From Bacillota bacterium (lineage in GTDB: Bacteria > Bacillota > Sulfobacillia > RBS10-35 > JAJYVN01): DNA of 47,644 bases. The first letter of the stretch is position 1. Every line of letters begins with the position of its first letter. The DNA is taken from NCBI GenBank assembly GCA_021791995.1, contig JAJYVN010000002.1, forward strand, positions 1 through 47,644. The letters run 5' to 3'. Positions 15,736-43,980 of this stretch are shown here, piece by piece. Position numbers and translations under genes: made by a program. The notes beneath the pieces are model-generated. The model was not told the DNA's origin, did not search any database, and was given only the letters and a program-made list of their open reading frames with translations.

Positions 15736-16146
15736 CTAGAACGGAACCTCCTCGGCCTCCTGCTCGGCCGGCGGAGCCTCCGCGTCCGACGGGGGCGCGC
15801 CGTCCGCGACCTCGCCGTTGCCCTTCTTCGGGCTGTCGAGGAAGCGAACGTTGTCCGCCACGACCTCGGCGGCCTTGCGCCGCTGGCCGTCCTGGGTCTC
15901 GTAGTTGCGGATCTGCAGTCGGCCGGTGACGGCGACCAGACGCCCCTTCTGGAGGTGACCGGAGACCGTCTCCGCAAGCTTGCGCCACGTGACGATCTCG
16001 ATGAAGTCGACGTCACGCTCACCCTGCTGATTGGAGAACGGGCGGTCGACCGCGAGGGCGAAGTTGGCCACCGCCACGCCCGACGGCGTGTACCTCAGCT
16101 CCGGATCGCGCGTAAGACGCCCGATCAGGATGATCTCGTTCAGCAT
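15736..16146 (-). CDS. ssb: Single-stranded DNA-binding protein (136 aa)
   Basis: OB-fold N-terminus MLNEIILIGRLTRDPELRYTPSGVAVANFALAV...FIEIVTWRKLAE and an acidic tail ending EEVPF. ATG 16146 is 12 nt after AGGAGGTG. Confidence 0.9.
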   Translation of the reverse strand: MLNEIILIGRLTRDPELRYTPSGVAVANFALAVDRPFSNQQGERDVDFIEIVTWRKLAETVSGHLQKGRLVAVTGRLQIRNYETQDGQRRKAAEVVADNVRFLDSPKKGNGEVADGAPPSDAEAPPAEQEAEEVPF

Positions 16147-16336
16147 CTCGGGGATGCACCTCCTGAAAAGTGTGGGGCTCCCACGCTGCCGACGTCCCGA
16201 GTCGGGAGCGCAGGCGGCGCGGGAGCCCGGAAGCAAACCCGTCGATTCTGCGTCGGGCCGGGAGGGTCAAGGGCAGAGCGAAGCGACCCTTGACCCGATG
16301 GCCCGTGCGCGGCCTGAAAGGCTCGAGCGACGCGCC

Positions 16337-17810: not shown

Positions 17811-18293
17811 TCAGGCTGTGGCGGTAACGAGCACCGCCTGCCGCCATCCGGCAGGACCCGTGGCTCCGCATACCCGGCACCGAAGCGTGCCATCCGACTG
17901 GCGAACGCCACGATGGGTACCCGGCGAGCAGGGGCTGGGATGCACCATCGGCTCACGGTAGATCCGCACGGGGATGCCGGCCTTGCGGCACAGTCGGATC
18001 ATCCCGTCCGTGCCTGGGCTCGGCCCGTCGCTCCGGAACGCAATACACGTGTTCGCTCCCATTCGGACCATCTCGGCGTTGCGGCGGGGCCCCGCGCTCT
18101 TGCCGAAGCGAGCCCAGTCTGCCGGATGCGGCTCACATTGGAAGCCCAAGGCCTCCGCCGCCCGGGCGGCCAGGGAGTCGGCTCCCCGGCCGGCACCGTG
18201 GACGATAACGCTCCCCGGTGGAAGGCTTCGCAGCGTCTGAAGGACGACCGGATAGTTGGCCCAGCTGCGGCTGCCGCAGACGATCACGCGCAT
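17811..18293 (-). CDS. DUF2493 / SLOG-family protein with a C-terminal CHCC zinc-knuckle-like extension (160 aa)
   Basis: ATG 18293 follows GAGGAGG. Sequence RVIVCGSRSW...VIVHGAGRGADSLAARAAEALG...PADWARFGKSAGPRRNAEMV matches the DUF2493 pattern. The tail is PCSPGTHRGVRQSDGTLRCRVCG. Confidence 0.75.
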   Translation of the reverse strand: MRVIVCGSRSWANYPVVLQTLRSLPPGSVIVHGAGRGADSLAARAAEALGFQCEPHPADWARFGKSAGPRRNAEMVRMGANTCIAFRSDGPSPGTDGMIRLCRKAGIPVRIYREPMVHPSPCSPGTHRGVRQSDGTLRCRVCGATGPAGWRQAVLVTATA

Positions 18294-18305
18294 GTGGTCG
18301 CCTCC

Positions 18306-18776
18306 TCAGGAAGCCCGCCTTTTGCTTGGACTGCACGCGCCGTAGTGCACGGGATGGGCGCGGATGTGCCGCCGGAGCGCCGCCAGTTCGCCTGGATAGA
18401 GACGGCAGGCGCACAGGTACATGAGTCGCTTGACACGCCTCGTGTCCACGCTGTCTGTCCACACCTCGTCCCCGTCAGGCAGACCCGTGAGGACGAAGGT
18501 CCGCACCATCTCGTCCATCGTGATCTCGCCGGCGACATCGTAGAGTCGTCCGTCGGGCGCCTTCCCGTAGACGTGCACGAGGCAGTCGTCATCGTCCTCG
18601 GCCGACGGGTCCAGCTCGAAGATGGCCTCCATCGCGTACCCAAGTTCCAGGTGAAGCGCATAGGCAAACGTCGGGCAGCCACCGTTTCGGTACTCGTGGA
18701 CCAGGTCGCCCATGGTGGTGATCGCCCGGCCGTGGCCCGGCACCGGTTCGCGTAACAGAACGTCGGCACTGCGCAT
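18306..18776 (-). CDS. Hypothetical protein (156 aa)
   Basis: ATG 18776 is 8 nt after GGAGG. Acidic patch SAEDDDD. No family recognised. Confidence 0.6.
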   Translation of the reverse strand: MRSADVLLREPVPGHGRAITTMGDLVHEYRNGGCPTFAYALHLELGYAMEAIFELDPSAEDDDDCLVHVYGKAPDGRLYDVAGEITMDEMVRTFVLTGLPDGDEVWTDSVDTRRVKRLMYLCACRLYPGELAALRRHIRAHPVHYGACSPSKRRAS

Positions 18777-18796
18777 GCGTCTCGCCTCCAAAACGC

Positions 18797-18888
18797 GGCT
18801 CTCCCGTCCTCCAGGTCGGCCTGCCTGGAGGTCCGGCGCCTGGCAGGAGGCGCGACAGACGTCCAACGGCCCGGAGGACGGGAGAGCC
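18797..18888. other. 92-nt multi-branched inverted repeat (perfect 16-bp outer arms)
   Basis: GGCTCTCCCGTCCTCC (18797-18812) pairs with GGAGGACGGGAGAGCC (18873-18888). The inner 60 nt holds GCGCCT-ggcagg-AGGCGC and an alternative pairing CCTCCAGG/CCTGGAGG. Confidence 0.75.
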
Positions 18889-18990
18889 CGTCAGGATCGT
18901 AAGGAGCAGATCATCGACGCCCTTCACGCCGCGAGCGAGTCCCCGGGCGGGCAAGGCCCTCCTTGCCGGACCGGAGACGAGGTCGGACGA

Positions 18991-19389
18991 TCACACGGCG
19001 GATCTCCGCTCGCCGCATACACGGCAGACCAGAGAACCGTCGCGTTGCCGTACGCCGCGGTGCATACCCGGCGGGCAGTGGTAGCCCATGAGGCGGCCAA
19101 GACTGCGGGCGAACCGCCGGCGTGGCCGGGACACCACGATGATGCCCTTGTGCAGACGGATCTTGAAGCTGACCGTGGCCATCGGGATGTAGGCGGTGAG
19201 CGTCACGCGTTTGCAGCACTGGCACTCGCAGCACCAGCCGATGCCCCCGTCCATGGAGGTCGGCATCATGTCGCTGTAGCCGATGTGGAGCACCTTCGGG
19301 CGCCAGCACCGGCAGCAGGTGCCGAGCCTACGTTCGTTGACCGACATCAGCTCGGCGCGGGTGACGAATCCAGGCTGGAACCTCCTCAT
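18991..19389 (-). CDS. Cysteine-rich protein with a C-terminal CHCC module (132 aa)
   Basis: Contains CCRCW...WCCECQCC clusters. The tail is HCPPGMHRGVRQRDGSLVCRVCG. ATG 19389 lies 28 nt after the upstream stop, and the RBS is weak. Confidence 0.55.
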   Translation of the reverse strand: MRRFQPGFVTRAELMSVNERRLGTCCRCWRPKVLHIGYSDMMPTSMDGGIGWCCECQCCKRVTLTAYIPMATVSFKIRLHKGIIVVSRPRRRFARSLGRLMGYHCPPGMHRGVRQRDGSLVCRVCGERRSAV

Positions 19390-19417
19390 CCCGGCTGGAA
19401 CACCGCGGTCACCTCCC

Positions 19418-20134
19418 TCAGGCGGGCTTGCGTTCGTGGCAGAGCTTGCATTCCACGTGGCCATCGGGCAGCCGAACTCCCCGGTGCTGACCGGGCCGGC
19501 ACAGCCGGAAGCGGCGGACCGGCGACCACTGCCGCTCAGGCCGGCTGGCTTCGGCCAGGAGCTCGGCACCGAGCCGGTAGAACCGCGCCTTGCGGACCAC
19601 CGTGGCCTCGCCACCGTCCTGCCGACGCACGTACATGTCCGAGATCGCGTCCACCCAGGCGTCCAGGTCACCGCTGTACCCGACACCCGAGACGTGGGTC
19701 GCCTCGTGGAGAGCGCTGCACTCCCCGCAGAACGAGCTGCCGTCGAAGGTCCGCCGGCCGCAGCTCCGGCAGAGCGACTGGAGCGCGTTGGTGAAGCGCT
19801 CCCGCCGGCTACCGGCCTCGTCGACGTCGGGCACCAGGTGGCCGACGACATCTTCGCCGTCGCTCGGGCGCGGCCCGAAGTCCGCGTAGGCGGTACGGGC
19901 CACGGCGGCGTGTGCCTTTGCGTGCCCAGCGGCCTCATCGCGTGTCGGGAAGGTCCGCCCGCACGCGCACGGCCGCCCCACCGGCACCGACCCCTGCTCG
20001 GCGCGAACGGCGAGCGGGTCCTCTCCGCTCACGACCGCGACCCCATGGACCTCGACGACTGGACGCTCTGGGCCAAGAGACAGGTACCAAGTGGCCCGCC
20101 GCGTCATCGTCCGGCGCGCGTACTGCTGAGGCAT
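19418..20134 (-). CDS. Multi-zinc-finger protein with a C-terminal CHCC module (238 aa)
   Basis: ATG 20134 is 5 nt after GGGAGGTG. Third positions are very G/C-rich from there on, unlike the upstream extension. It has a C2H2-like site (CACGRTFPTRDEAAGHAKAH) and a ribbon (CRSCG...CGEC). The tail is LCRPGQHRGVRLPDGHVECKLCH. Confidence 0.7.
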   Translation of the reverse strand: MPQQYARRTMTRRATWYLSLGPERPVVEVHGVAVVSGEDPLAVRAEQGSVPVGRPCACGRTFPTRDEAAGHAKAHAAVARTAYADFGPRPSDGEDVVGHLVPDVDEAGSRRERFTNALQSLCRSCGRRTFDGSSFCGECSALHEATHVSGVGYSGDLDAWVDAISDMYVRRQDGGEATVVRKARFYRLGAELLAEASRPERQWSPVRRFRLCRPGQHRGVRLPDGHVECKLCHERKPA

Positions 20135-20361: not shown

Positions 20362-20577
20362 TCAGCCTCTGGCTTGCACTCCTGGTGCCACTCCGCGCGG
20401 TACGTCGTCGATCGCCTGGTGGAAAGCCAAGGCCTCCTTGAACGAAGCCAGCGTCTCCTCCGGGGTGTCGCCGGTAGCCACACAGCCTGGAACGTCGTCG
20501 CTGTACGCGGACCAGTTCCCGCCTGCGGGTTCGATCACGATGGTCACGCGCGGCCAGGCCGCCGTCGCCTTGCTCAT
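20362..20577 (-). CDS. hicB: HicB-family antitoxin (71 aa)
   Basis: RVTIVIEPAGGNWSAYSDDVPGCVATGDTPEETLASFKEALAFH matches the HicB/UPF0150 fold. Its start overlaps the hicA stop (ATGA). Confidence 0.8.
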   Translation of the reverse strand: MSKATAAWPRVTIVIEPAGGNWSAYSDDVPGCVATGDTPEETLASFKEALAFHQAIDDVPRGVAPGVQARG

Positions 20578-20789
20578 CGGCCATTCCCCCGCAGCCCGGC
20601 TTGGCGCCGGATGCTCGCCACCGTGCCCTTGGCGATCTCGTGACCAGGGTTCCCCGGCACCGTGACCTCGCCCGGATTCGTCGGGTGCTTGAAGTGCCGG
20701 TGGTCACCATGCTGAGCCACGGAAACCCATCCGTCGGCCTGAAGCTCCGCGATCATCTCGCGCACACGCGCAGGCCACACCTGCAGCAT
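20574..20789 (-). CDS. hicA: HicA-family mRNA-interferase toxin (71 aa)
   Basis: MIAELQADGWVSVAQHGDHRHFKHPTNPGEVTVPGNPGHEIAKGTVASIRRQAGL matches the HicA pattern (GW...GSH..f.hp....tvP.H...i..gt...I.kqaGl). Confidence 0.8.
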   Translation of the reverse strand: MLQVWPARVREMIAELQADGWVSVAQHGDHRHFKHPTNPGEVTVPGNPGHEIAKGTVASIRRQAGLRGNGR

Positions 20790-21350: not shown

Positions 21351-22100
21351 CTAGGCCGAGACGACCTCACCGTATTCGTACAGACGCAACGGCACGTACC
21401 GAACGAGTTGATCGCCTAGTAGGTCGCCCTGATCACCGTCAAGATCGACAATGACGCCGACGCCGGGATCGTCCGCGGCTCCGAGGCTAGCCACGGTGGC
21501 GCGATAGCTCCCGCGGCGAACGCTTTGGGTCAGGCACCAGCTGTACACTGCCGGTACAAAGCCGATGTGAACGCCCGATGGTGACAGTACCCGGATTGCG
21601 TTGGGGTCGTGTGGGTTGGTTTCATCGAGTTGCAGTCCCAAGACGGCCCCGGGCACCAGTTCCTCCATCACCTGTTCGCCATCGTAGTAACGCCAGCCAG
21701 CCACAGGAAATCGGAGGTAGTACGTGTCCGCCGCGCTAATCGGCTCAAGGAACTCAAGTGTATCGGTGGGCAGACGACCCCCGGTGAGACGCAAGAACTC
21801 TATCCCGTCGCCGGGCTCCACTCCGAGGCGCCCGTAATCCTCGGCGGCCCACGTCTGCGGCACCCGCCGGAGGAACGTTGCGAACAGTTCGGGCTGCCGC
21901 CATTCGCCTTCGGGGGCAGGGAACTCGTCGAATAGTCGGAAGCCAACGGCCTGCGCTTCGCTCAGTGCTCCAGGGGTAGTTGTTTCGTACCTAAACACGT
22001 GCCCGCGCGAGTCACGCGATAGGTGCCCGATGAGGTAGCGGCGCCGCGACAAGGCATGCTGCCAAACAACAAGCACAGAACTGTCTGGTCGCCCAGCCAT
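21351..22100 (-). CDS. HipA-N-terminal-like (HipS-like) domain fused to a HIRAN domain (249 aa)
   Basis: ATG 22100 directly abuts the kinase gene stop (TAGATG). N-terminal blocks VLVVWQHALSRRRYLIGHLSRDSRGHVFRYE, ELFATFLRRVPQ and GIEFLRLTGGRLPTDTLEFLEP parallel E. coli HipA blocks LVTWMNNQRVGEL...HTFKYA, VFNFFDNLLPD and FDLLSEIGRDSVGA. The C-terminal block GAVLGLQLDETNPHDPNAIRVLSPSGVHIGFVP is a HIRAN signature. Confidence 0.7.
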   Translation of the reverse strand: MAGRPDSSVLVVWQHALSRRRYLIGHLSRDSRGHVFRYETTTPGALSEAQAVGFRLFDEFPAPEGEWRQPELFATFLRRVPQTWAAEDYGRLGVEPGDGIEFLRLTGGRLPTDTLEFLEPISAADTYYLRFPVAGWRYYDGEQVMEELVPGAVLGLQLDETNPHDPNAIRVLSPSGVHIGFVPAVYSWCLTQSVRRGSYRATVASLGAADDPGVGVIVDLDGDQGDLLGDQLVRYVPLRLYEYGEVVSA

Positions 22101-22940
22101 CTACCCATCCCCCCTTGCAACGAGGATGTCCCTCCTACTGCGTAGGACCACGCGAGCGAAGGACCAGCGTTCAGGCTCCATGATACTCTCTGGCTCATCT
22201 ATGGAGGCCAAAATTTGGTCGATGGCATCATCTGTTAGATTACCCACAAGTTCCTTGAATCCCGCCATGTCTGGGTCCAGTTGCCGGACCGTGGCCAGTA
22301 GCTCAGGGATCCCGGGCTTCCGGGCGTCCTCCCGGAGGAGAATCTCGTAGCGGAACTGACGATCGAACCGGCCTAAGCCTTTCCGGAGGTGCAGTTCGAT
22401 GCGCAGTGGATCGAGGGCACTTCCGAATGCAGCAGCGTTGTCGTAGTAGGGCGCCATTTCGGCTGAGCCACCGTTACCCAGCGTCACGCCCCAATTGGCC
22501 TGATGGCGGTCCGCGTTTCCGGTAAGAATGTCAAAACACACCATGCGAATGAAGCCTCGTACGGCCAAATGTCGGTCCGTGTAGTGACCCAGGCACTCCA
22601 GGACGCGGGCGACAGTGAGCCGGTCCTTGGACATCGAACCTGCAAGATCAATTCCTTCGCGAAGCTCTTGACCCGGTCCGAGGAACGACCGAACCAATGC
22701 TCCTACCCGACGGTTCATGATGGCAGGTTCGACAATTGGGACGGGCAGGCCAAGCCACCGTCCAACGTGGGAGGCCAAAACCTCAGCTCCGACCTCCCCG
22801 GTAACAAACAGGCCCTCCTGTGTCGCCTGCTCTTTGGGGAACTTCAGGAGGTACCATCGTGATTCTCGATCTTGAACCCAGTAGCCGGGCCGGCTCCCCG
22901 TGCCCTTTCTCACCTTGGTCCAATCCGACACATCTAACAT
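22101..22940 (-). CDS. HipA-family Ser/Thr kinase, core domain only (279 aa)
   Basis: Catalytic block CFDILTGNADRHQANWGV, and later APYYDNAAAFG. ATG 22940 (the track uses TTG 22946). The G+C content is visibly lower than in the flanks. Confidence 0.8.
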   Translation of the reverse strand: MLDVSDWTKVRKGTGSRPGYWVQDRESRWYLLKFPKEQATQEGLFVTGEVGAEVLASHVGRWLGLPVPIVEPAIMNRRVGALVRSFLGPGQELREGIDLAGSMSKDRLTVARVLECLGHYTDRHLAVRGFIRMVCFDILTGNADRHQANWGVTLGNGGSAEMAPYYDNAAAFGSALDPLRIELHLRKGLGRFDRQFRYEILLREDARKPGIPELLATVRQLDPDMAGFKELVGNLTDDAIDQILASIDEPESIMEPERWSFARVVLRSRRDILVARGDG

Positions 22941-22946
22941 GGCCAA

Positions 22947-24310: not shown

Positions 24311-25240
24311 TCAGCCACCCGTCGTCGGTCGGCGCGTGAGCGCCAGCCCGACAGCCTGGAGCAGATCCACGCTGCGGTTCCCAGCCACGGCCTCCACCGT
24401 CAGCTTGTCCACCCGCCACACGTCCTCCCGAATGAACATCGCCGGGAACAAGAGCAGGCTGGCCGCGGCTTCCTTCGCCAGGTTGTAGACGCTCTCCGAG
24501 TAGCCCTGGGTGTTCCCGAGCACATCGACGGAGAACAACACCTTGGGCTCTCGGGCGAAGCTCGCCTCCCAGACCCGCCCGTCGAAGTAGCGCTTGTACT
24601 TCGTCATCCGGTCATGGACGTCGCCGGGCCGCAGTGACCGCTCATGCTCCACCAACACAGCCGTGCCATTCCCGAACAGGAGCGCGGCATCCGGGCTGAC
24701 CTCAAGCCTCTGGCCGCCCACAGCCATCGGGTGAACTCGCTGCACCAGCCGCTTAGAGCCCCGCCAATCCACCGGCACTCCCGCACGCGCAGCGTGCCGG
24801 ATCACGGTCGTTGCCAGGTCGGCAATCGCCAACTGGTGAACGACGTTGTTCCGCGTACCAAACGCGGCATACGGAGGGTCCCAGTCCGGTTCTGCCGCCA
24901 ACGCGACCACGTTGCCATTCAGCACCAGCACCTCGAACCCGAGGCGAGTCAGGCCGTACACCCACGCGCTGGCCCGCCCCTCTGCAACGTCTTCTCGACA
25001 CCGGGCCAGCAGGCCGTGCATGTACAGCCGCAACAGCCTCTTGTTGGCCACGGCAATGCTCTGCTCAAACGGCAAGTGCCGCCGACCCAGGAAGGAGTGC
25101 TCAAGGAGCATGGCTAGCCCCTCAAGATCCCGCTCGGTAACCCAAAACTCCCCGGTCCCTCGGATCAACTCCCCGGCCTGGTGGGTTACGTCGGCGGTCT
25201 CCCACATCGGCCACACCCGCTGCCCCTTGCGCACCAGCAC
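24311..25240 (-). CDS. Replication-relaxation family protein (about 309 aa)
   Basis: wHTH-like N-terminus (VTERDLEGLAMLLEHSFLGRRHL...ANKRLLRLYMHGLLAR...VYGLTRLGFEVL), then NNVVHQLAIADL and PDAALLF blocks as I remember for PF13814. I chose GTG 25240, 4 nt after GGAGGAGG. ATG 25354 would translate the TGGCGCCA array (repeated KVLAPD). Confidence 0.7.
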   Translation of the reverse strand: MLVRKGQRVWPMWETADVTHQAGELIRGTGEFWVTERDLEGLAMLLEHSFLGRRHLPFEQSIAVANKRLLRLYMHGLLARCREDVAEGRASAWVYGLTRLGFEVLVLNGNVVALAAEPDWDPPYAAFGTRNNVVHQLAIADLATTVIRHAARAGVPVDWRGSKRLVQRVHPMAVGGQRLEVSPDAALLFGNGTAVLVEHERSLRPGDVHDRMTKYKRYFDGRVWEASFAREPKVLFSVDVLGNTQGYSESVYNLAKEAAASLLLFPAMFIREDVWRVDKLTVEAVAGNRSVDLLQAVGLALTRRPTTGG

Positions 25241-25279
25241 TTTTCCTCCTCCACACCAGACGCAGCTTCGGTAGACGTC

Positions 25280-25429
25280 TGGCGCCAGCACTTTTCCGCG
25301 TCCTGACGCGGAGAACGCAGCCTTCAACCGGCGATCTGGCGCCAAAACGGTCATGGCGCCAGGGCCTATGCGCCTCGTGAAGCGGAAAATCGCTGACGCC
25401 AAACCCCAACCGGCGCCAAATTGGCGTCT
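25280..25429. repeat. TGGCGCCA palindrome array A (3 perfect and 3 degenerate copies, one 24-bp composite unit)
   Basis: Perfect copies at 25280, 25337 and 25354. Degenerate copies at 25394, 25411 and 25422. The composite unit TGGCGCCAgcacTTTTCCGCGTCC is at 25280-25303. Confidence 0.85.
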
Positions 25430-25495
25430 GGTTCGCCGCGCCCTCATATCGCCAACCAACGGCGAGGGGGCGGCCCCTGCGACCGCCCCCTCGTA

Positions 25496-30543: not shown

Positions 30544-31560
30544 CTACGCGGGTGCCGTCGACCTGGAAGCCGCGAGCATCGCCGCGTACCCCCGGGCGTT
30601 GGCGCCCGCGGCCTCCTCCAGCAACTCAGCGCTCTCAAACGCCCCGGCGAGGTGTGGGTACAGCAACACGCCGCCCCCACCGACGACAAGGACCGTGGAC
30701 ACCTGATTGAAGGCGGAGCCCCACGCCTCCTTGAGCCTGCCGGCGATTTCCGCGGCCAGATCGCCGCTCGTAGAGCGAACGCGCTCGTCCACATCTACCT
30801 TTCGGCCGCGTACGGACAGCGGCCGCGAGTCCAGCACCGCCTGCTCCACCTCGCTTGGGTCGAGCATCGTAGAGGTCTCGTGCGAAATCTCCTGAGCCAC
30901 CGTCGCGTAGACACGCTCGACGCCGATGTCGAGGCTCCCGCTCACGCGCTCGTCCGGTCTCGCCAGGCGCTCGCCGGGAGCGAGACGGAGAAGCATGTGG
31001 TCCGTCGTGCGATAGCCGACGTCCACAACGGCGCACGGCTCAAGCGCCAAGTCCGGCCTACGGCTCACCGCGGCAAAGTACGCCGCTGCCGACTGGGGAA
31101 ACACCCGCACGGTGCCAATCCGGATAGGAACGAGAGGGCCGTCGTCCACGCTCACCATCATCTGCGCGCCAGCAAGACGCCCCCGCAGCTCTCGCCGCTC
31201 GGCCACGGCGGTGTACAGGCTCAGCGGCAGACCCACGGCCAAGGAGACGTCACCGGAGACGTCCAGGAGACGCAGCGCGGTAAAGACCAACTGAACGTAG
31301 TCCTGCCGCCTGGCGGCTTGCGCGTCCCACGTACGGGCGCCTCCGGCAAAGAGCGCGGCACTGCCCACGAGGGCTGTGTCCGCTTGCGCCAAGGCGCCAT
31401 CGCTCAGAACCAGTCGGTGCGGTAGCGACCGGCCGCCCAACGCGGCAGTCAGCTCGCCACCGGTCCGCCCGCGTACCACGACGCTAGGGAAGGAGACCCG
31501 GAGGCCGTCTTCCCGAGCCGCCTTCGTGTACCCGTACCCCACATCTACCCCAACAATCAC
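30544..31560 (-). CDS. parM: ParM/StbA-family actin-like segregation ATPase (338 aa)
   Basis: Starts MIVGVDVGYGYTKAA (phosphate-1 loop), with a later VVDVGYRTTD block. The GTG start overlaps the EAL gene stop (GTGA). Confidence 0.8.
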   Translation of the reverse strand: MIVGVDVGYGYTKAAREDGLRVSFPSVVVRGRTGGELTAALGGRSLPHRLVLSDGALAQADTALVGSAALFAGGARTWDAQAARRQDYVQLVFTALRLLDVSGDVSLAVGLPLSLYTAVAERRELRGRLAGAQMMVSVDDGPLVPIRIGTVRVFPQSAAAYFAAVSRRPDLALEPCAVVDVGYRTTDHMLLRLAPGERLARPDERVSGSLDIGVERVYATVAQEISHETSTMLDPSEVEQAVLDSRPLSVRGRKVDVDERVRSTSGDLAAEIAGRLKEAWGSAFNQVSTVLVVGGGGVLLYPHLAGAFESAELLEEAAGANARGYAAMLAASRSTAPA

Positions 31561-32255
31561 GCGCGCCGCCTCCCCTTACCAATCACCGGCTTACCGAACA
31601 GATACCCCTGGCCGAAGGGAACGCCGATCCGCCGGAGGGTGGCCGCCTCCCCGGCGACTTCCACGCCTTCCGCGATCAGGTGCGCGCCAATGTCCGAAGC
31701 GTATTGCGCAAGCACCCCGAGCATCGCGGCCTTCTGCGGATCACGGTGACACCCGTCGACGATGGACCGATCTACCTTGATGTAGGCAGGGTGCATCCTC
31801 ACAAGCGCCCCCAAGTTGGCCTGACCGGAACCTACATCGTCCACCGCGTAGGAAATCCCCGCCTCTTCGAGACCGTGCACAAGGCTGTCCGGAATCCGGG
31901 CGGCTTCGCTCAATTCGACCACGACCCGTTCGTGGTGCCTCCACCGGTCCACGACGCCAGCCGAGCGTGGATCGGCGTTCACGAACAACAGCCCATCGGT
32001 CCTGGGCAGGTCGGCGCACAGCTGCGCCACCAAGTCCTCCAGCGACTCGAGAACCCCAGTTCGCGTCGCTTCGCTCCACAGATCCGTCGGGTCCAACTCC
32101 GGGTGGCGCTCGATCCGGAACAGAGCCTCGTGACCGATGACGACCTTCGAGTCGAGGTTGATGATCGGCTGAAGAGCCATGCGCGATCGGAGCCTGCCGT
32201 TGAGAACGGCGTACAACATACCGGCAATCTCCAAAGAAGCCATCCTAGACGCCAT
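31557..32255 (-). CDS. EAL-domain c-di-GMP phosphodiesterase, stand-alone (232 aa)
   Basis: Signature blocks are intact: GHEALFRI, LFVNADP, VVELSEA, YAVDDVGSG, IKVDRS, IAEGVE, GQGYLFGKP. I prefer ATG 32255, 5 nt after AGGGGGAAG (the track start is 32294). Confidence 0.85.
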   Translation of the reverse strand: MASRMASLEIAGMLYAVLNGRLRSRMALQPIINLDSKVVIGHEALFRIERHPELDPTDLWSEATRTGVLESLEDLVAQLCADLPRTDGLLFVNADPRSAGVVDRWRHHERVVVELSEAARIPDSLVHGLEEAGISYAVDDVGSGQANLGALVRMHPAYIKVDRSIVDGCHRDPQKAAMLGVLAQYASDIGAHLIAEGVEVAGEAATLRRIGVPFGQGYLFGKPVIGKGRRRA

Positions 32256-32499
32256 CGTCGCTTCCCCCTGCCGTGGCGAACTCCCAACGTACAACCCCGA
32301 ACCGGATCACCCGGAACCAAGCCGAGAGGCGCACCGGCTGCTGGTCGGCCCAGCGCGGTGTCGAAGTGCCATGCACGATCACCCGGCCAGACGTCATGCC
32401 ACGCGCAACGGCGACCCGTCGTGCCGCGACTTGCGGATCCTCGGTCCCAACACGGATCTCTACGTCTCCCTCGGACTCGCTCAGCGTCGCGGCCCTCAT
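32245..32499 (-). CDS. Hypothetical protein (84 aa)
   Basis: ATG 32499 is 8 nt after TGGAGG. The gene overlaps the EAL start by 11 nt. No motif recognised. Confidence 0.45.
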   Translation of the reverse strand: MRAATLSESEGDVEIRVGTEDPQVAARRVAVARGMTSGRVIVHGTSTPRWADQQPVRLSAWFRVIRFGVVRWEFATAGGSDDGV

Positions 32500-41449: not shown

Positions 41450-42229
41450 TCATCGGTTGTCCCCCTCTCGCGGCGGCGGGCCAAGGGTGCCTGCCCGCCG
41501 CTTCTCCCGCAGTCGGTAGCTCTCGCCCCGGATGTTCACCACGTGGCTGTGGTGCAGTAACCGGTCCAAGATCGCCGTGGCCACCACCGAGTCCCCCAGC
41601 ACCTCGCCCCACTCGGCGAAGCCCTTGTTGGACGTCAGGACAATGCTCCCACGCTCGTACCGGGCGCTCACCAAGGTGAACAAGGCCGTCGCCGCCACAC
41701 GGTCGCATGGCCACACCCCGAACTCGTCAATCACAAGTACCTTGGGCGCCAGGTACACCCGCATCCGCCGCTCCAGTCGGTGCTCCACCTGCGCCCGCGA
41801 CAGGTCCTCCAACAGATCGTGGGCCCGCACGAAGTACACTCCATGGCCTTGCTCGATCGCCCGCAGCCCCAGAGCCGTCGCTAGGTGGGTCTTGCCCACT
41901 CCCGGCGGCCCCAGGAACAGCACGTTGGATGCCTCCGTCACAAACGCTAGGCTGGTCAGTTCCCGGATCTGCCGCTCGTCGATCGACGGCTGGAACGCGA
42001 AGTCGAAGTCCTCTAACGTGCGCCGATAGGGCAAGTGGGCAAGCCGGGTGCGGGTCCGCAGGTATCTCTCCCGTCGGGCGGTCATCTCCACCTGCAGAAG
42101 CTCCGCCAGAAACTCGGGGTAGACCATCTCTTTGCGGGCCGCAGTCTCCACCAAGCCGTCCAGCGCCATGGCCGCCTGGGTCAGACCCAAGTGCTCGAGC
42201 GATACCCGGCAGCGCTCAAGGTCGATCAC
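41450..42229 (-). CDS. istB: IS21-family helper ATPase IstB (259 aa)
   Basis: Walker A is LFLGPPGVGKTHLATALG and Walker B is LVIDEFG. The GTG start overlaps the istA stop (GTGA). Confidence 0.9.
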   Translation of the reverse strand: MIDLERCRVSLEHLGLTQAAMALDGLVETAARKEMVYPEFLAELLQVEMTARRERYLRTRTRLAHLPYRRTLEDFDFAFQPSIDERQIRELTSLAFVTEASNVLFLGPPGVGKTHLATALGLRAIEQGHGVYFVRAHDLLEDLSRAQVEHRLERRMRVYLAPKVLVIDEFGVWPCDRVAATALFTLVSARYERGSIVLTSNKGFAEWGEVLGDSVVATAILDRLLHHSHVVNIRGESYRLREKRRAGTLGPPPREGDNR

Positions 42230-43440
42230 GACACCACCCCCGCCAAGGCCTCGTACACAGCAAGCGGGCGCCTCTCCACGGTCACGTCGGCGACCTGTAC
42301 GGCCAGGGCCTCTCGCCGTGGTCGGCCATCGCCTTGCCTAAGACCCGTCCACTGGCCGGGAACCCTAAGCCGTTGCCCTGGGCGGCTGGCGTGGGGGTGT
42401 ACCGCTATCCGCTCGCCCTCGGCCCAGATCGTGATCACGTCAGCCTTGGGCTCCAGCTGCACCGATGTGCCGGCCCACCGCCAAGGCACGCCGTACCACG
42501 CCCTCTGCCACTGCACAAAGCCGTCGCGTCCCACCTGGCGGTCTTCGCGCACCAAGTCCGCCACGCGACTCGCCGGCGGGACGGCACCCAACATCGCCCG
42601 TTCCCTCAGAAGCTGGTCCCCGGGTCGCTCCAAGGTGGTGCCGTGGACCCGCATATCGGCGACCGAGATACACCACTCCATGGCCTGGCGATTGAGTTCC
42701 CCGAGGTCTGTGAACCGGGCACTGGGCCAGAAGTTGTTTCGGACGTACTTGACCCCGCTCTCCACCCGTCCCTTGGTCTGGGCCCGGTAGGGACGGCACA
42801 GCCGGATCTCCATGCCCACCCGACGGGCGAAGTCCAGGAACTTGGGGTTGAGCACCACCTCGCCGGCGTCGTCGCGGCCTAGGACCACGACCTTGGCGTT
42901 GTCATAGAGGCCGACCTTGGGGACACCGCCGAAGTGGGCAAACGCGTTCAGGTGGCAGCGGATGAACGATGCCGAGTCGGCCTTCTCGATGAACTCGACG
43001 TAGATGGCGCGCGACCAGCTCAGCACCATGACGAAGGCCCAGATGGACCGGGTGCGGCCATCCGGGGTCTGGTAGCGGAAGAACCCGAAATCGACCTGGG
43101 CCTGTTCGCCGGGCTGGGTCTCGAAGCGGCGTGTTGCCTTGGGCTCGAGCGGCCGGCGCAGGGGCTGCACGAACTCCTTGAGGATCGTACGTCCGCCGGC
43201 ATAGCCCATGGCCCGGATCTCCCGCAGCAGCACCTCGCAATTCTCAAGCCCCTCGGCCAGGCGGCCCTCGATGTAGGGCTTGTAGGGGTCGATCTGCGAC
43301 GGCCGCCGTGGCCGGGACTTCGGCTTGGGCACGCCATCGGCTCGCAGGTAGCGGCGTACGGTGTTTCTGGCAACGCTCAGTTCCCTTGCGATGGCTCGGA
43401 TCGACCTTCCCTGGCCGTGCATCTCGTACAATCGACGCAT
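42226..43440 (-). CDS. istA: IS21-family transposase IstA (about 404 aa)
   Basis: The N-terminal HTH is GRSIRAIARELSVARNTVRRYL. The DDE region includes QVDFGFFRY, YDNAKVVV and KGRVESGVKYV. ATG 43440 follows AGGAGGTGG. Confidence 0.9.
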   Translation of the reverse strand: MRRLYEMHGQGRSIRAIARELSVARNTVRRYLRADGVPKPKSRPRRPSQIDPYKPYIEGRLAEGLENCEVLLREIRAMGYAGGRTILKEFVQPLRRPLEPKATRRFETQPGEQAQVDFGFFRYQTPDGRTRSIWAFVMVLSWSRAIYVEFIEKADSASFIRCHLNAFAHFGGVPKVGLYDNAKVVVLGRDDAGEVVLNPKFLDFARRVGMEIRLCRPYRAQTKGRVESGVKYVRNNFWPSARFTDLGELNRQAMEWCISVADMRVHGTTLERPGDQLLRERAMLGAVPPASRVADLVREDRQVGRDGFVQWQRAWYGVPWRWAGTSVQLEPKADVITIWAEGERIAVHPHASRPGQRLRVPGQWTGLRQGDGRPRREALAVQVADVTVERRPLAVYEALAGVVS

Positions 43441-43980
43441 TGGCCCACCTCCTAGCAAGTGCACACCTCCCGAATCCTGGCAGGGATCCGGAGGGGTACT
43501 TCGTCGGGGGTGGGTCAATTCATACCCGGCGCACGTGGGTCAGTTTACCGGTGGCGGTAACAAGGGCACCTCGAAACGAAGGCGACGCCTCCACGGGACT
43601 TCTTCCGCTCCACCGGTTCAACCATGCGTAGCCTGCCTGTATGGCGTGGACCACAGCCCGTCAACCAGGTTATACGCTGCTGGCCCGGGGCCCCTGTTGT
43701 CCGTCCTGATGGGGCGTAAGCGGTAACGGTTCTCTTGGGCGCAGTACCCAAACCTCTGTAGCAAGCCACGTGATAAGGGCCAAGGGGACGGCCCCGCCCG
43801 GATCGGTGCGAGGATGAAGTTCGTGTGAAGCCGACCGAGGGACACGTCCAAATACGGCAGCACTCTCCAGCGCCCTGCCTTCCCTGGAAACTCTGCCAGC
43901 TTCTCTCGTAGGGAGCTGTTCACCACACGGCACGCCCGTCCCACCGCCGCCAAGGTCAAGGCGAAACGCTGCCGCTCGCT

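Follow-up and report, generated by a model that had tools for sequence, protein, structure and literature searches.

What does a small cysteine-rich module do when it recurs near the ends of several proteins whose other parts are unrelated? The question is raised by a stretch of 47,644 nucleotides from a member of the Bacillota (contig JAJYVN010000002.1 of assembly GCA_021791995.1; this whole stretch is hereafter called the window), in which a SLOG protein, a Cys-rich protein, and a multi-zinc-finger protein all carry the motif C-x-PG-x-HRGVR-xx-DG-x3-C-x2-C close to their C-termini. We conclude that the module is very probably a new autonomous domain of the zinc-ribbon type that has no name as yet. 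For its job we tentatively propose nucleic-acid tethering, which we regard as possible rather than probable, and the reading as a whole, that of a lineage-restricted ribbon with Cys-His-Cys-Cys (CHCC) ligands that would tether its carriers to nucleic acid within an anti-defence island, falls a little short of even chances.

How well defined is the module within the window? A six-frame regular-expression search and a degenerate DNA pattern each found exactly three copies in the 47,644 bp, all on the minus strand, and 100 dinucleotide-preserving shuffles of the window (G+C content 65.8%) gave 0 matches. The spans from the first to the last Cys are 17868-17930, 19015-19077, and 19439-19501. An earlier inspection of this DNA, made from the letters alone (the sequence-only reading), had placed the copies at 17865-17933, 19012-19080, and 19436-19504, which are the same spans with one flanking residue on each side; it also gave the peptide strings and the tails (17, 6, and 5 residues) correctly. 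With a local hidden Markov model (HMM) of the module, true copies score 39-54 bits and the remaining window sequence at most 8 bits, so there is no degenerate fourth copy. Without the module, no similarity remains among the three cores (BLASTP E >= 0.26), and the carriers are therefore otherwise unrelated, as had been claimed; they are not all adjacent, since a 157-amino acid (aa) gene without the motif lies between the SLOG and Cys-rich genes. At the DNA level, the three copies are 60-68% identical and their synonymous differences are saturated, with a proportion of differing synonymous sites (pS) of 0.61-0.72; of the 12-16 residues that agree, just 6-7 are encoded by identical codons. Because nucleotide identity is low and synonymous divergence saturated, the copies must be old and conserved at the protein level, in agreement with the sequence-only reading, and a recent DNA duplication or gene conversion among them is ruled out by pS values of 0.6-0.7 and the lack of any excess similarity within elements.

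Comparison with relatives sharpens this picture. Across 25 distinct variants, the module spans about 27 residues and reads C-x-P-G-x-H-[RKL]-G-x-R-x2-[DN]-G-x-[LVI]-x-C-x2-C-[GH], followed by a short strand. Seven positions are invariant (C1, G4, H6, G8, G14, C18, and C21) and three nearly so (P3 in 24/25, R7 in 21/25, and R10 in 23/25), while position 13 is D or N and position 16 is hydrophobic. All 25 variants thus present four potential ligands from two short knuckles, C1-x4-H6 and C18-x2-C21, in the manner of a zinc ribbon, and the mean net charge is +3.9 per 27 residues. AlphaFold, given the module alone and an alignment of five sequences, predicted three short strands in the order knuckle, hairpin, knuckle, strand with a mean predicted local distance difference test (pLDDT) score of 78; the strands fall at G-V-R, at x-L-x-C, and after C-x2-C-G, which corresponds to the hairpin and third strand of a zinc ribbon at the moderate confidence that a five-sequence alignment allows. 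A model of the whole multi-finger protein was unusable for fold searches (pLDDT 46 overall), and the same strands reappear in it as the best-predicted part, with the locally highest pLDDT. The invariant ligands and the ribbon-like model agree with the earlier suggestion that the module is a discrete Cys/His metal-knuckle element, as far as prediction goes.

Selection on the module can be read from the same relatives. In pooled ortholog comparisons, where pS is saturated, the proportion of differing nonsynonymous sites (pN) is 0.18 in the module vs 0.32 in the rest of the carriers, and within the Cys-rich family the contrast is larger still (0.15-0.19 vs 0.44-0.46 for the remainder). Judged by these proportions, the module is under stronger purifying selection than its carriers; the sequence-only reading had named a lack of purifying selection in relatives as a result that would speak against it. 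Identity at the variable positions is 0.49 between copies on the same carrier in different elements and 0.33 between copies on different carriers in the same element, against a background of 0.35. The copies therefore group by carrier and not by element, which indicates neither concerted evolution nor element-specific co-variation.

Does the module belong to a described family? Isolated modules found no match in Pfam even at E <= 10, and when the carriers were searched against Pfam, NCBIfam, PHROGs, and PADLOC, only the SLOG core was recognised. The module profile reached a best E of 0.24 against all PDB sequences, which is non-significant, and Foldseek searches with the module model gave best E values of 2.4 (PDB) and 0.4 (BFVD), so that no significant match to a described family emerged. 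The top Foldseek neighbours, all non-significant, were zinc ribbons that belong to nucleic-acid-binding proteins, among them eL43, RPA70, PriA, and small actinophage proteins, and relatives of the carriers gave weak Pfam matches to Cas12f1-like_TNB (E 0.012), Trm112p, and Zn_ribbon_3. The statement in the sequence-only reading that this is not a named domain has thus withstood Pfam, NCBIfam, PHROGs, PADLOC, PDB sequences, and Foldseek. We also considered whether the repeats might be something other than a protein domain; the 3' ends of the carrier genes had no match in Rfam and no excess of terminator-like sites, and we rejected a mobile DNA cassette, an RNA element, or a terminator on these grounds. 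The multi-finger protein has an internal C4 ribbon (CRSCGRRTFDGSSFCGEC) that shares R-x2-DG-x3-C-x2-C with the module but scores only 2.5 bits, and descent of the module from it is therefore unsupported.

Taken together, the ligand pattern, the AlphaFold strands, and the null library searches point to a putative zinc ribbon with an unusual C-x4-H first knuckle that fits no described family. Generic zinc ribbons (clan Zn_Beta_Ribbon, with eL43/L37a, RPA70, PriA, TFIIB, and the Cas12f TNB) resemble the module in having two knuckles flanking a beta-hairpin within about 25-30 residues, in being promiscuous among nucleic-acid-handling proteins, and in having a basic surface. They differ in that the first knuckle of the module is C-x-P-G-x-H, a Cys and a His with a four-residue spacing, rather than C-x2-C, and the H-R-G-x-R plus [DN]-G signature has no counterpart in any model.

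On which proteins does the module occur? Genuine members have one of four core types: YAcAr-SLOG, Cys-rich, C2H2/ribbon multi-finger, and DUF4326. The SLOG carrier belongs to the YAcAr (DUF2493) group, matching PF10686 over residues 1-63 (E 1e-14; 54.4 bits vs a gathering cutoff of 28.2 bits) as well as phrog_289. Among its homologues, the module is restricted to the 8 closest (>= 56% identity, 155-160 aa). The next-closest, P0045 (125 aa) and P0046 (118 aa), lack it even though their cores are 58-59% identical, hundreds of others consist of SLOG only, and the "DprA-like" homologue of a mycobacteriophage also lacks it. Given this sharp boundary and the range of cores and positions, we regard the module as a portable, position-independent domain that was acquired within one lineage. 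The family profile of the multi-finger carrier matches PRDM9/Zif268-type C2H2 fingers in the PDB, and its relatives show weak Pfam matches to zf-C2H2 and DZR. In the Cys-rich family, which occurs as two paralogues in some elements, the C-x2-C-x6-H ... CC-x-C-x2-C cluster is invariant across the alignment, and the window protein has no match in Pfam, PHROGs, NCBIfam, or PADLOC. The sequence-only reading had described the module as C-terminal, which applies to the three carriers in the window but not to all relatives. It is N-terminal in two DUF4326 proteins encoded by tandem genes in locus L011, with the first ligand Cys at residue 2 or 4, and internal in the multi-finger relative P0008 (L010 36-662), where DR replaces DG. 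Where it is neither N-terminal nor internal, the module is followed by a tail of 5-18 variable residues.

The distribution of the domain is narrow. A profile HMM search of 1.84 billion representative proteins returned 17 matches at E <= 1e-3, about 10 clusters of which are genuine, and these are all metagenomic (ENA, Logan, and JGI) and all from relatives of the window's element, with the window, a complete contig, as the sole NCBI record among them. Such a search for the motif on other cores had been suggested by the sequence-only reading, which counted absence elsewhere against its own proposal, and the module was indeed found outside the window locus, on DUF4326. The degenerate DNA pattern retrieved five contigs from metagenomes, all syntenic relatives with four copies each, and the Cys-rich carrier has just two word-index homologues in 5.8 billion clusters. 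A word-index search with a 40-aa alignment, for which three 5-mers must be shared, gave no candidate. In IMG/VR, the strict DNA pattern gave 0 matches and a relaxed pattern 4, all in unrelated Cys-rich frames. When a consensus of the module was compared by tblastn with 50,697 phage and 72,556 plasmid records, no match fell below E 0.3, and the best ones among phages run antisense to a helicase gene. The sole strict-pattern match in 185,579 species genomes, in a Pygmaiobacter metagenome-assembled genome (L002), was treated as chance: its frame spans 69 codons from stop to stop, and its score is only 21.8 bits, the highest value of any non-member among all sequences scored with the local HMM. 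False positives of the profile search were open reading frames of FNPRTHRGVR repeats, a LIM protein, and a membrane protein with CPPGQHRD repeats. Its range is limited to one small clade of plasmid-like elements from uncultivated sources.

What surrounds the carriers? In the window and in the related loci L009 and L003, the genes come in one order: multi-finger, Cys-rich, (variable slot), SLOG, M50-like, DarG-like macrodomain, small helical protein, and SSB. Nearly all genes of the island and of its upstream and downstream flanks lie on one strand (Table 1). The macrodomain matches the glycohydrolase part of DarG, which is of the DNA ADP-ribosyl glycohydrolase type, and lacks the C-terminal part of DarG. 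Downstream of the island are DnaN, a MoxR-VWA block, and a SNF2-type helicase. In plasmid leading regions, beside oriT on the side transferred first, genes for SSB, toxin-antitoxin systems, and anti-defence proteins cluster co-directionally (PMC11541004). In the window, SSB, HicAB, the DarG-like macrodomain, and SLOG are co-directional and lie downstream of a replication-relaxation gene. Two studies describe viral SLOG and DUF4326 as recurrent fusion partners of Macro/NADAR in predicted ADP-ribose-processing counter-defence (PMC9503650, PMC7824862), a network to which two of our carrier cores and the neighbouring macrodomain belong. In this literature, the SLOG, DUF4326, Macro, and NADAR domains are fused to each other or to helix-turn-helix, HNH, or helicase domains, and text searches of three papers found no shared CHCC ribbon as a common accessory. 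By analogy with these systems, the gene cluster is probably an establishment or anti-defence island. An actin-like partition gene, a ribbon-helix-helix protein, and an IS21 copy suggest that the element is a large plasmid or an integrative element. Family scans of the 47.6-kb contig, in which the element is not closed, recognised neither structural genes of phages nor components of type IV secretion (VirB4, VirD4, or TraB-type) or coupling-protein families. The contig has no terminal overlap, and its DNA had no match among plasmids.

Table 1. Positions of the module copies, their carriers, and other features of the window (E values and bit scores from the family searches and the local HMM; aa, amino acids).
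Feature	Positions	Strand	Description
Module copy 1	17850-17930	-	CSPGTHRGVRQSDGTLRCRVC then GATGPA; local HMM 50.9 bits; on SLOG carrier
Module copy 2	18997-19077	-	CPPGMHRGVRQRDGSLVCRVC then GERRSA; local HMM 51.5 bits; on Cys-rich carrier
Module copy 3	19421-19501	-	CRPGQHRGVRLPDGHVECKLC then HERKPA; local HMM 50.3 bits; on multi-finger carrier
Carrier 1, YAcAr (DUF2493) SLOG protein, 160 aa	17811-18293	-	SLOG core of about 115 aa, Pro-rich linker, module, 17-aa tail
Intervening gene, 157 aa	18306-18779	-	No module; weak YunG-like match; variable slot, absent from related loci
Carrier 2, Cys-rich protein, 132 aa	18991-19389	-	C-x2-C-x6-H ... CC-x-C-x2-C cluster, RRRF motif, module, 6-aa tail
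Carrier 3, multi-zinc-finger protein, 238 aa	19418-20134	-	Classical C2H2-type finger, C4 ribbon, helical region, module, 5-aa tail
M50-like HExxH membrane protein, 125 aa	17324-17701	-	PF02163 E 5.5e-6, 26.3 bits, just under the 27.2-bit cutoff; syntenic in L009 (tblastn 57%)
Standalone DarG-like macrodomain, 161 aa	16830-17315	-	NCBIfam NF048014 E 1e-16 (macrodomain part only); PADLOC DarG E 2e-15; phrog_335; syntenic in L009 and L003
Helical protein, about 60 aa	16337-16519	-	Motif LRGDRLRALLDAA.DVA.GSD; no family match
SSB	15736-16236	-	PF00436 E 1e-34; acidic C-terminal tip ...EAEEVPF; syntenic in L003, L008, and L009
HicB/HicA toxin-antitoxin pair	20362-20789	-	Directly upstream of carrier 3; HicAB also beside P0008 in L010
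HipA_C-like kinase gene abutting HIRAN-domain gene	22101-22946 and 21351-22100	-	Upstream of carriers; both components (A, B) of PADLOC candidate defence system PDC-M03, E 7e-43 and 1e-47
Replication-relaxation family protein	24311-25459	-	PF13814 E 8e-13; upstream of the co-directional island
Protein of 1221 aa	25496-29161	-	Weak P-loop region (similar to mad8/HerA) and GGDEF domain; adjoins replication-relaxation gene
EAL protein and actin-like (ALP/ParM-type) partition protein	30544-32294	-	
bpMoxR AAA+ ATPase, VWA protein, DUF6744, and SNF2/DpdE-like helicase of 928 aa	2103-10331	-	Same strand as island
IS21-family insertion sequence	41450-43518	-	istA 42226-43518, istB 41450-42229

In the reading that we prefer, the knuckles C-x4-H and C-x2-C would hold one zinc ion with a basic beta-hairpin between them, and this unit has been joined to at least four unrelated cores (those of the YAcAr-SLOG, DUF4326, Cys-rich, and C2H2/ribbon multi-finger proteins), either at one of the two termini or internally. 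The basic ribbon would then hold its carriers on nucleic acid in a generic way, perhaps on DNA of the element itself as it enters or replicates, or on DNA that is ADP-ribosylated, so that enzymes that process ADP-ribose (SLOG, DUF4326) and zinc-finger proteins would share one substrate. Nucleic acid or another generic anionic ligand fits better than a co-evolving protein partner because the exposed conserved residues are Arg and Gly and there is no co-variation within elements, and grouping by carrier (0.49 vs 0.33, with a background of 0.35) is what an invariant generic ligand would be expected to produce. Further support comes from the classical C2H2 finger in one carrier and from the carriers and their neighbours, which are predicted to act on or beside DNA and ADP-ribose. 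Several points weigh against this reading. None of the matches from Foldseek, Pfam, or PDB reaches significance, and the term zinc ribbon therefore rests on the ligand pattern and on a moderate-confidence model made from five sequences, and zinc and nucleic-acid binding by the module are themselves predictions. Basic charge is common in high-GC proteomes. The Cys-rich and multi-finger carriers have no assigned function, and the leading-region or anti-defence interpretation proceeds by analogy, as the window yielded neither an oriT nor a type IV secretion system or coupling protein. Finally, because all members come from one element lineage, their co-occurrence with SSB and the macrodomain has little discriminating power. 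A more specific version, which we consider very unlikely, would make the module an address tag for a chemical mark, either ADP-ribosylated (DarT-type) or otherwise damaged single-stranded DNA, or ADP-ribose itself. It would then be a bacterial functional analogue of the eukaryotic PBZ/PARP zinc fingers and might recruit the SLOG, DUF4326, and zinc-finger proteins to incoming plasmid DNA, where they would undo host DNA-ADP-ribosylation alongside the DarG-like macrodomain.

Could the module instead bind a protein? The sequence-only reading had envisaged a common docking or targeting tag for one shared partner, which might come from the element or the host (for example, the acidic tip of SSB, the DnaN clamp, or the relaxation protein) and would gather the effectors on one hub. 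Several co-encoded, co-directional proteins do bear the same small domain, the element encodes both an SSB with the canonical acidic tip and its own DnaN, and the module is basic and position-independent, as adaptor domains often are. Nevertheless, the conserved exposed positions are Arg and Gly and form no hydrophobic patch, and similarity within elements does not exceed that between elements (0.33 vs 0.35), which gives no hint that the module has co-evolved with a partner specific to its element; a shared docking partner is thus unsupported, and we judge it rather unlikely. The same surface bears on the idea that the module is a structural or regulatory cap with no common target, one that stabilises termini or acts as a zinc or redox sensor or a degron and was spread by local exon-like shuffling. 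A lineage-specific accident of this kind would suit the very narrow distribution (about 10 clusters among 1.84 billion representatives), the recombination breakpoints at the module edge, the syntenic M50-like protease, and the tails that often end in Ala, which loosely recall C-terminal degradation tags. Conservation of the non-ligand surface residues P3, R7, R10, and D/N13 across carriers, under a constraint above that on the cores, exceeds what a fold alone would need, however, and four cores have kept the module independently, in both orientations, which speaks for a function that can be transferred; a mere cap is thus distinctly unlikely.

Recruitment to a conjugative transfer apparatus, for export into recipients, had also been put forward in the sequence-only reading. 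Many type IV secretion substrates have Arg-rich C-terminal signals, and most copies of the module are Arg-rich and near the C-terminus, in a plasmid-like context with a replication-relaxation gene. The module is nevertheless N-terminal in both DUF4326 carriers and internal in P0008 rather than located at the extreme C-terminus, 5-18 variable residues follow it elsewhere, zinc domains with a tight fold are poorly suited to secretion, and no VirB4, VirD4, or TraB-type component was recognised in the window, all of which leave a C-terminal translocation signal highly improbable. As a functional analogy, shared targeting domains are known from secretion: XVIPCD in Xanthomonas type IV effectors, BID in the Bartonella Beps, and MIX/FIX in type VI effectors. 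Like the module, each is one small conserved unit on many unrelated proteins of the same system; unlike it, they are larger, are not metal knuckles, work with a secretion machine that has been identified, and keep to one terminus, whereas the position of the module varies. The module might alternatively be the degenerate remnant of a known finger, of either an HNH (beta-beta-alpha-Me) nuclease or a DnaG-type CHC2 primase, and to this we give almost no credence. The multi-finger subfamily ends in N-G-x-I-E-C-K-x-C-H-E-R-K, which resembles the N-x4-C-x2-C-H-x2-K string of the HNH C-terminal half, and P0006 alone has a weak Pfam HNH match (E 0.09). That match is below threshold (13.4 bits vs a cutoff of 21.4 bits) and covers only profile positions 29-44, so membership in HNH (PF01844) does not follow, and the residue after the last Cys is Gly (Arg in Cys-rich paralogue A) rather than His in the SLOG, Cys-rich, and DUF4326 carriers. 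The catalytic spacing of HNH is absent as well, with 7 residues from His to Asn/Asp in the module where typical HNH domains have at least 14, and the first His is needed as a metal ligand. The DnaG-type finger zf-CHC2 (PF01807), found in DNA-replication proteins of mobile elements and binding single-stranded DNA, has the same Cys-His-Cys-Cys ligand order, but its spacing is C-x2-H-x17-C-x2-C within a domain of about 90 aa, in contrast to C-x4-H-x11-C-x2-C in the module, and the module has no zf-CHC2 match at E <= 10, which places it outside PF01807.

If tethering to nucleic acid proves to be the role, the module would be a compact, portable "address label" by which a mobile element co-localises several unrelated counter-defence proteins. 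It would also tie the SLOG (YAcAr) and DUF4326 domains of viruses and plasmids, which are as yet uncharacterised, to a physical substrate, and a peptide of about 30 residues would offer an experimental handle on what these enzymes act on. The signature C-x-PG-x-HRG-x-R-x2-DG-x3-C-x2-C is an undescribed addition to the catalogue of zinc ribbons. The general impact is limited by the extreme rarity of the domain, with about 10 protein clusters in one metagenomic lineage.

Some further observations concern the module and its carriers. In most of the tails that follow the module, at all loci, the last residue is Ala (KPA, KSA, SAA, KAA, ATA, LPA, MPA, YAA) or Ala stands close to the end (SAV, KAS), the examples in the window being 17814-17864, 18994-19011, and 19421-19435; they may loosely recall C-terminal degradation tags, with high G+C content and shared ancestry as the alternative. 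Behind its internal module, P0008 has a degenerate further copy (CRAGFHPRAVAAGRGQRFCPEC), which escapes the module HMM. Cys-rich paralogue B is 95% identical as a protein between L001 (1724-1786) and L003 (1630-1692), and its body has a pS of 0.11, whereas 10 synonymous differences fall within 21 module codons and the DNA after the stop codon is unalignable. From this pattern, there seems to be a recombination breakpoint just upstream of the module in this pair. Among the profile matches, P0004, P0012, P0013, and P0016-P0018 contain FNPRTHRGVR, FQSTHPSWGAT, and ISIHAPIVGCD repeats; they share the HRGVR pentapeptide and look like translated repeat DNA, a false positive that recurs with this motif.

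Others concern the island and the rest of the element. The M50-like gene lies 8 nt upstream of the DarG-like macrodomain gene, and both are syntenic in L009; this may give the element an anti-DarT activity (DNA de-ADP-ribosylation). All related loci with enough flanking sequence (L003 4772-4996, L008 610-720, L009 4444-4683, and L010 2883-3155) encode the small helical protein of about 60 aa, possibly a conserved partner or regulator of the island. The block around the bpMoxR gene (Table 1) looks like a MoxR-VWA ternary-type conflict system. The IS21 copy sits between redox/copper genes (SCO1, SoxE-like, and thioredoxin-like) and a CcmF gene, and the best plasmid relatives of its IstA, from Deinococcus, are at most 51% identical. 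The GGDEF and EAL proteins are located near the replication-relaxation gene and the partition gene, and such cyclic-di-GMP enzymes on a mobile element recall components of "polyvalent proteins" (PMC5512222).

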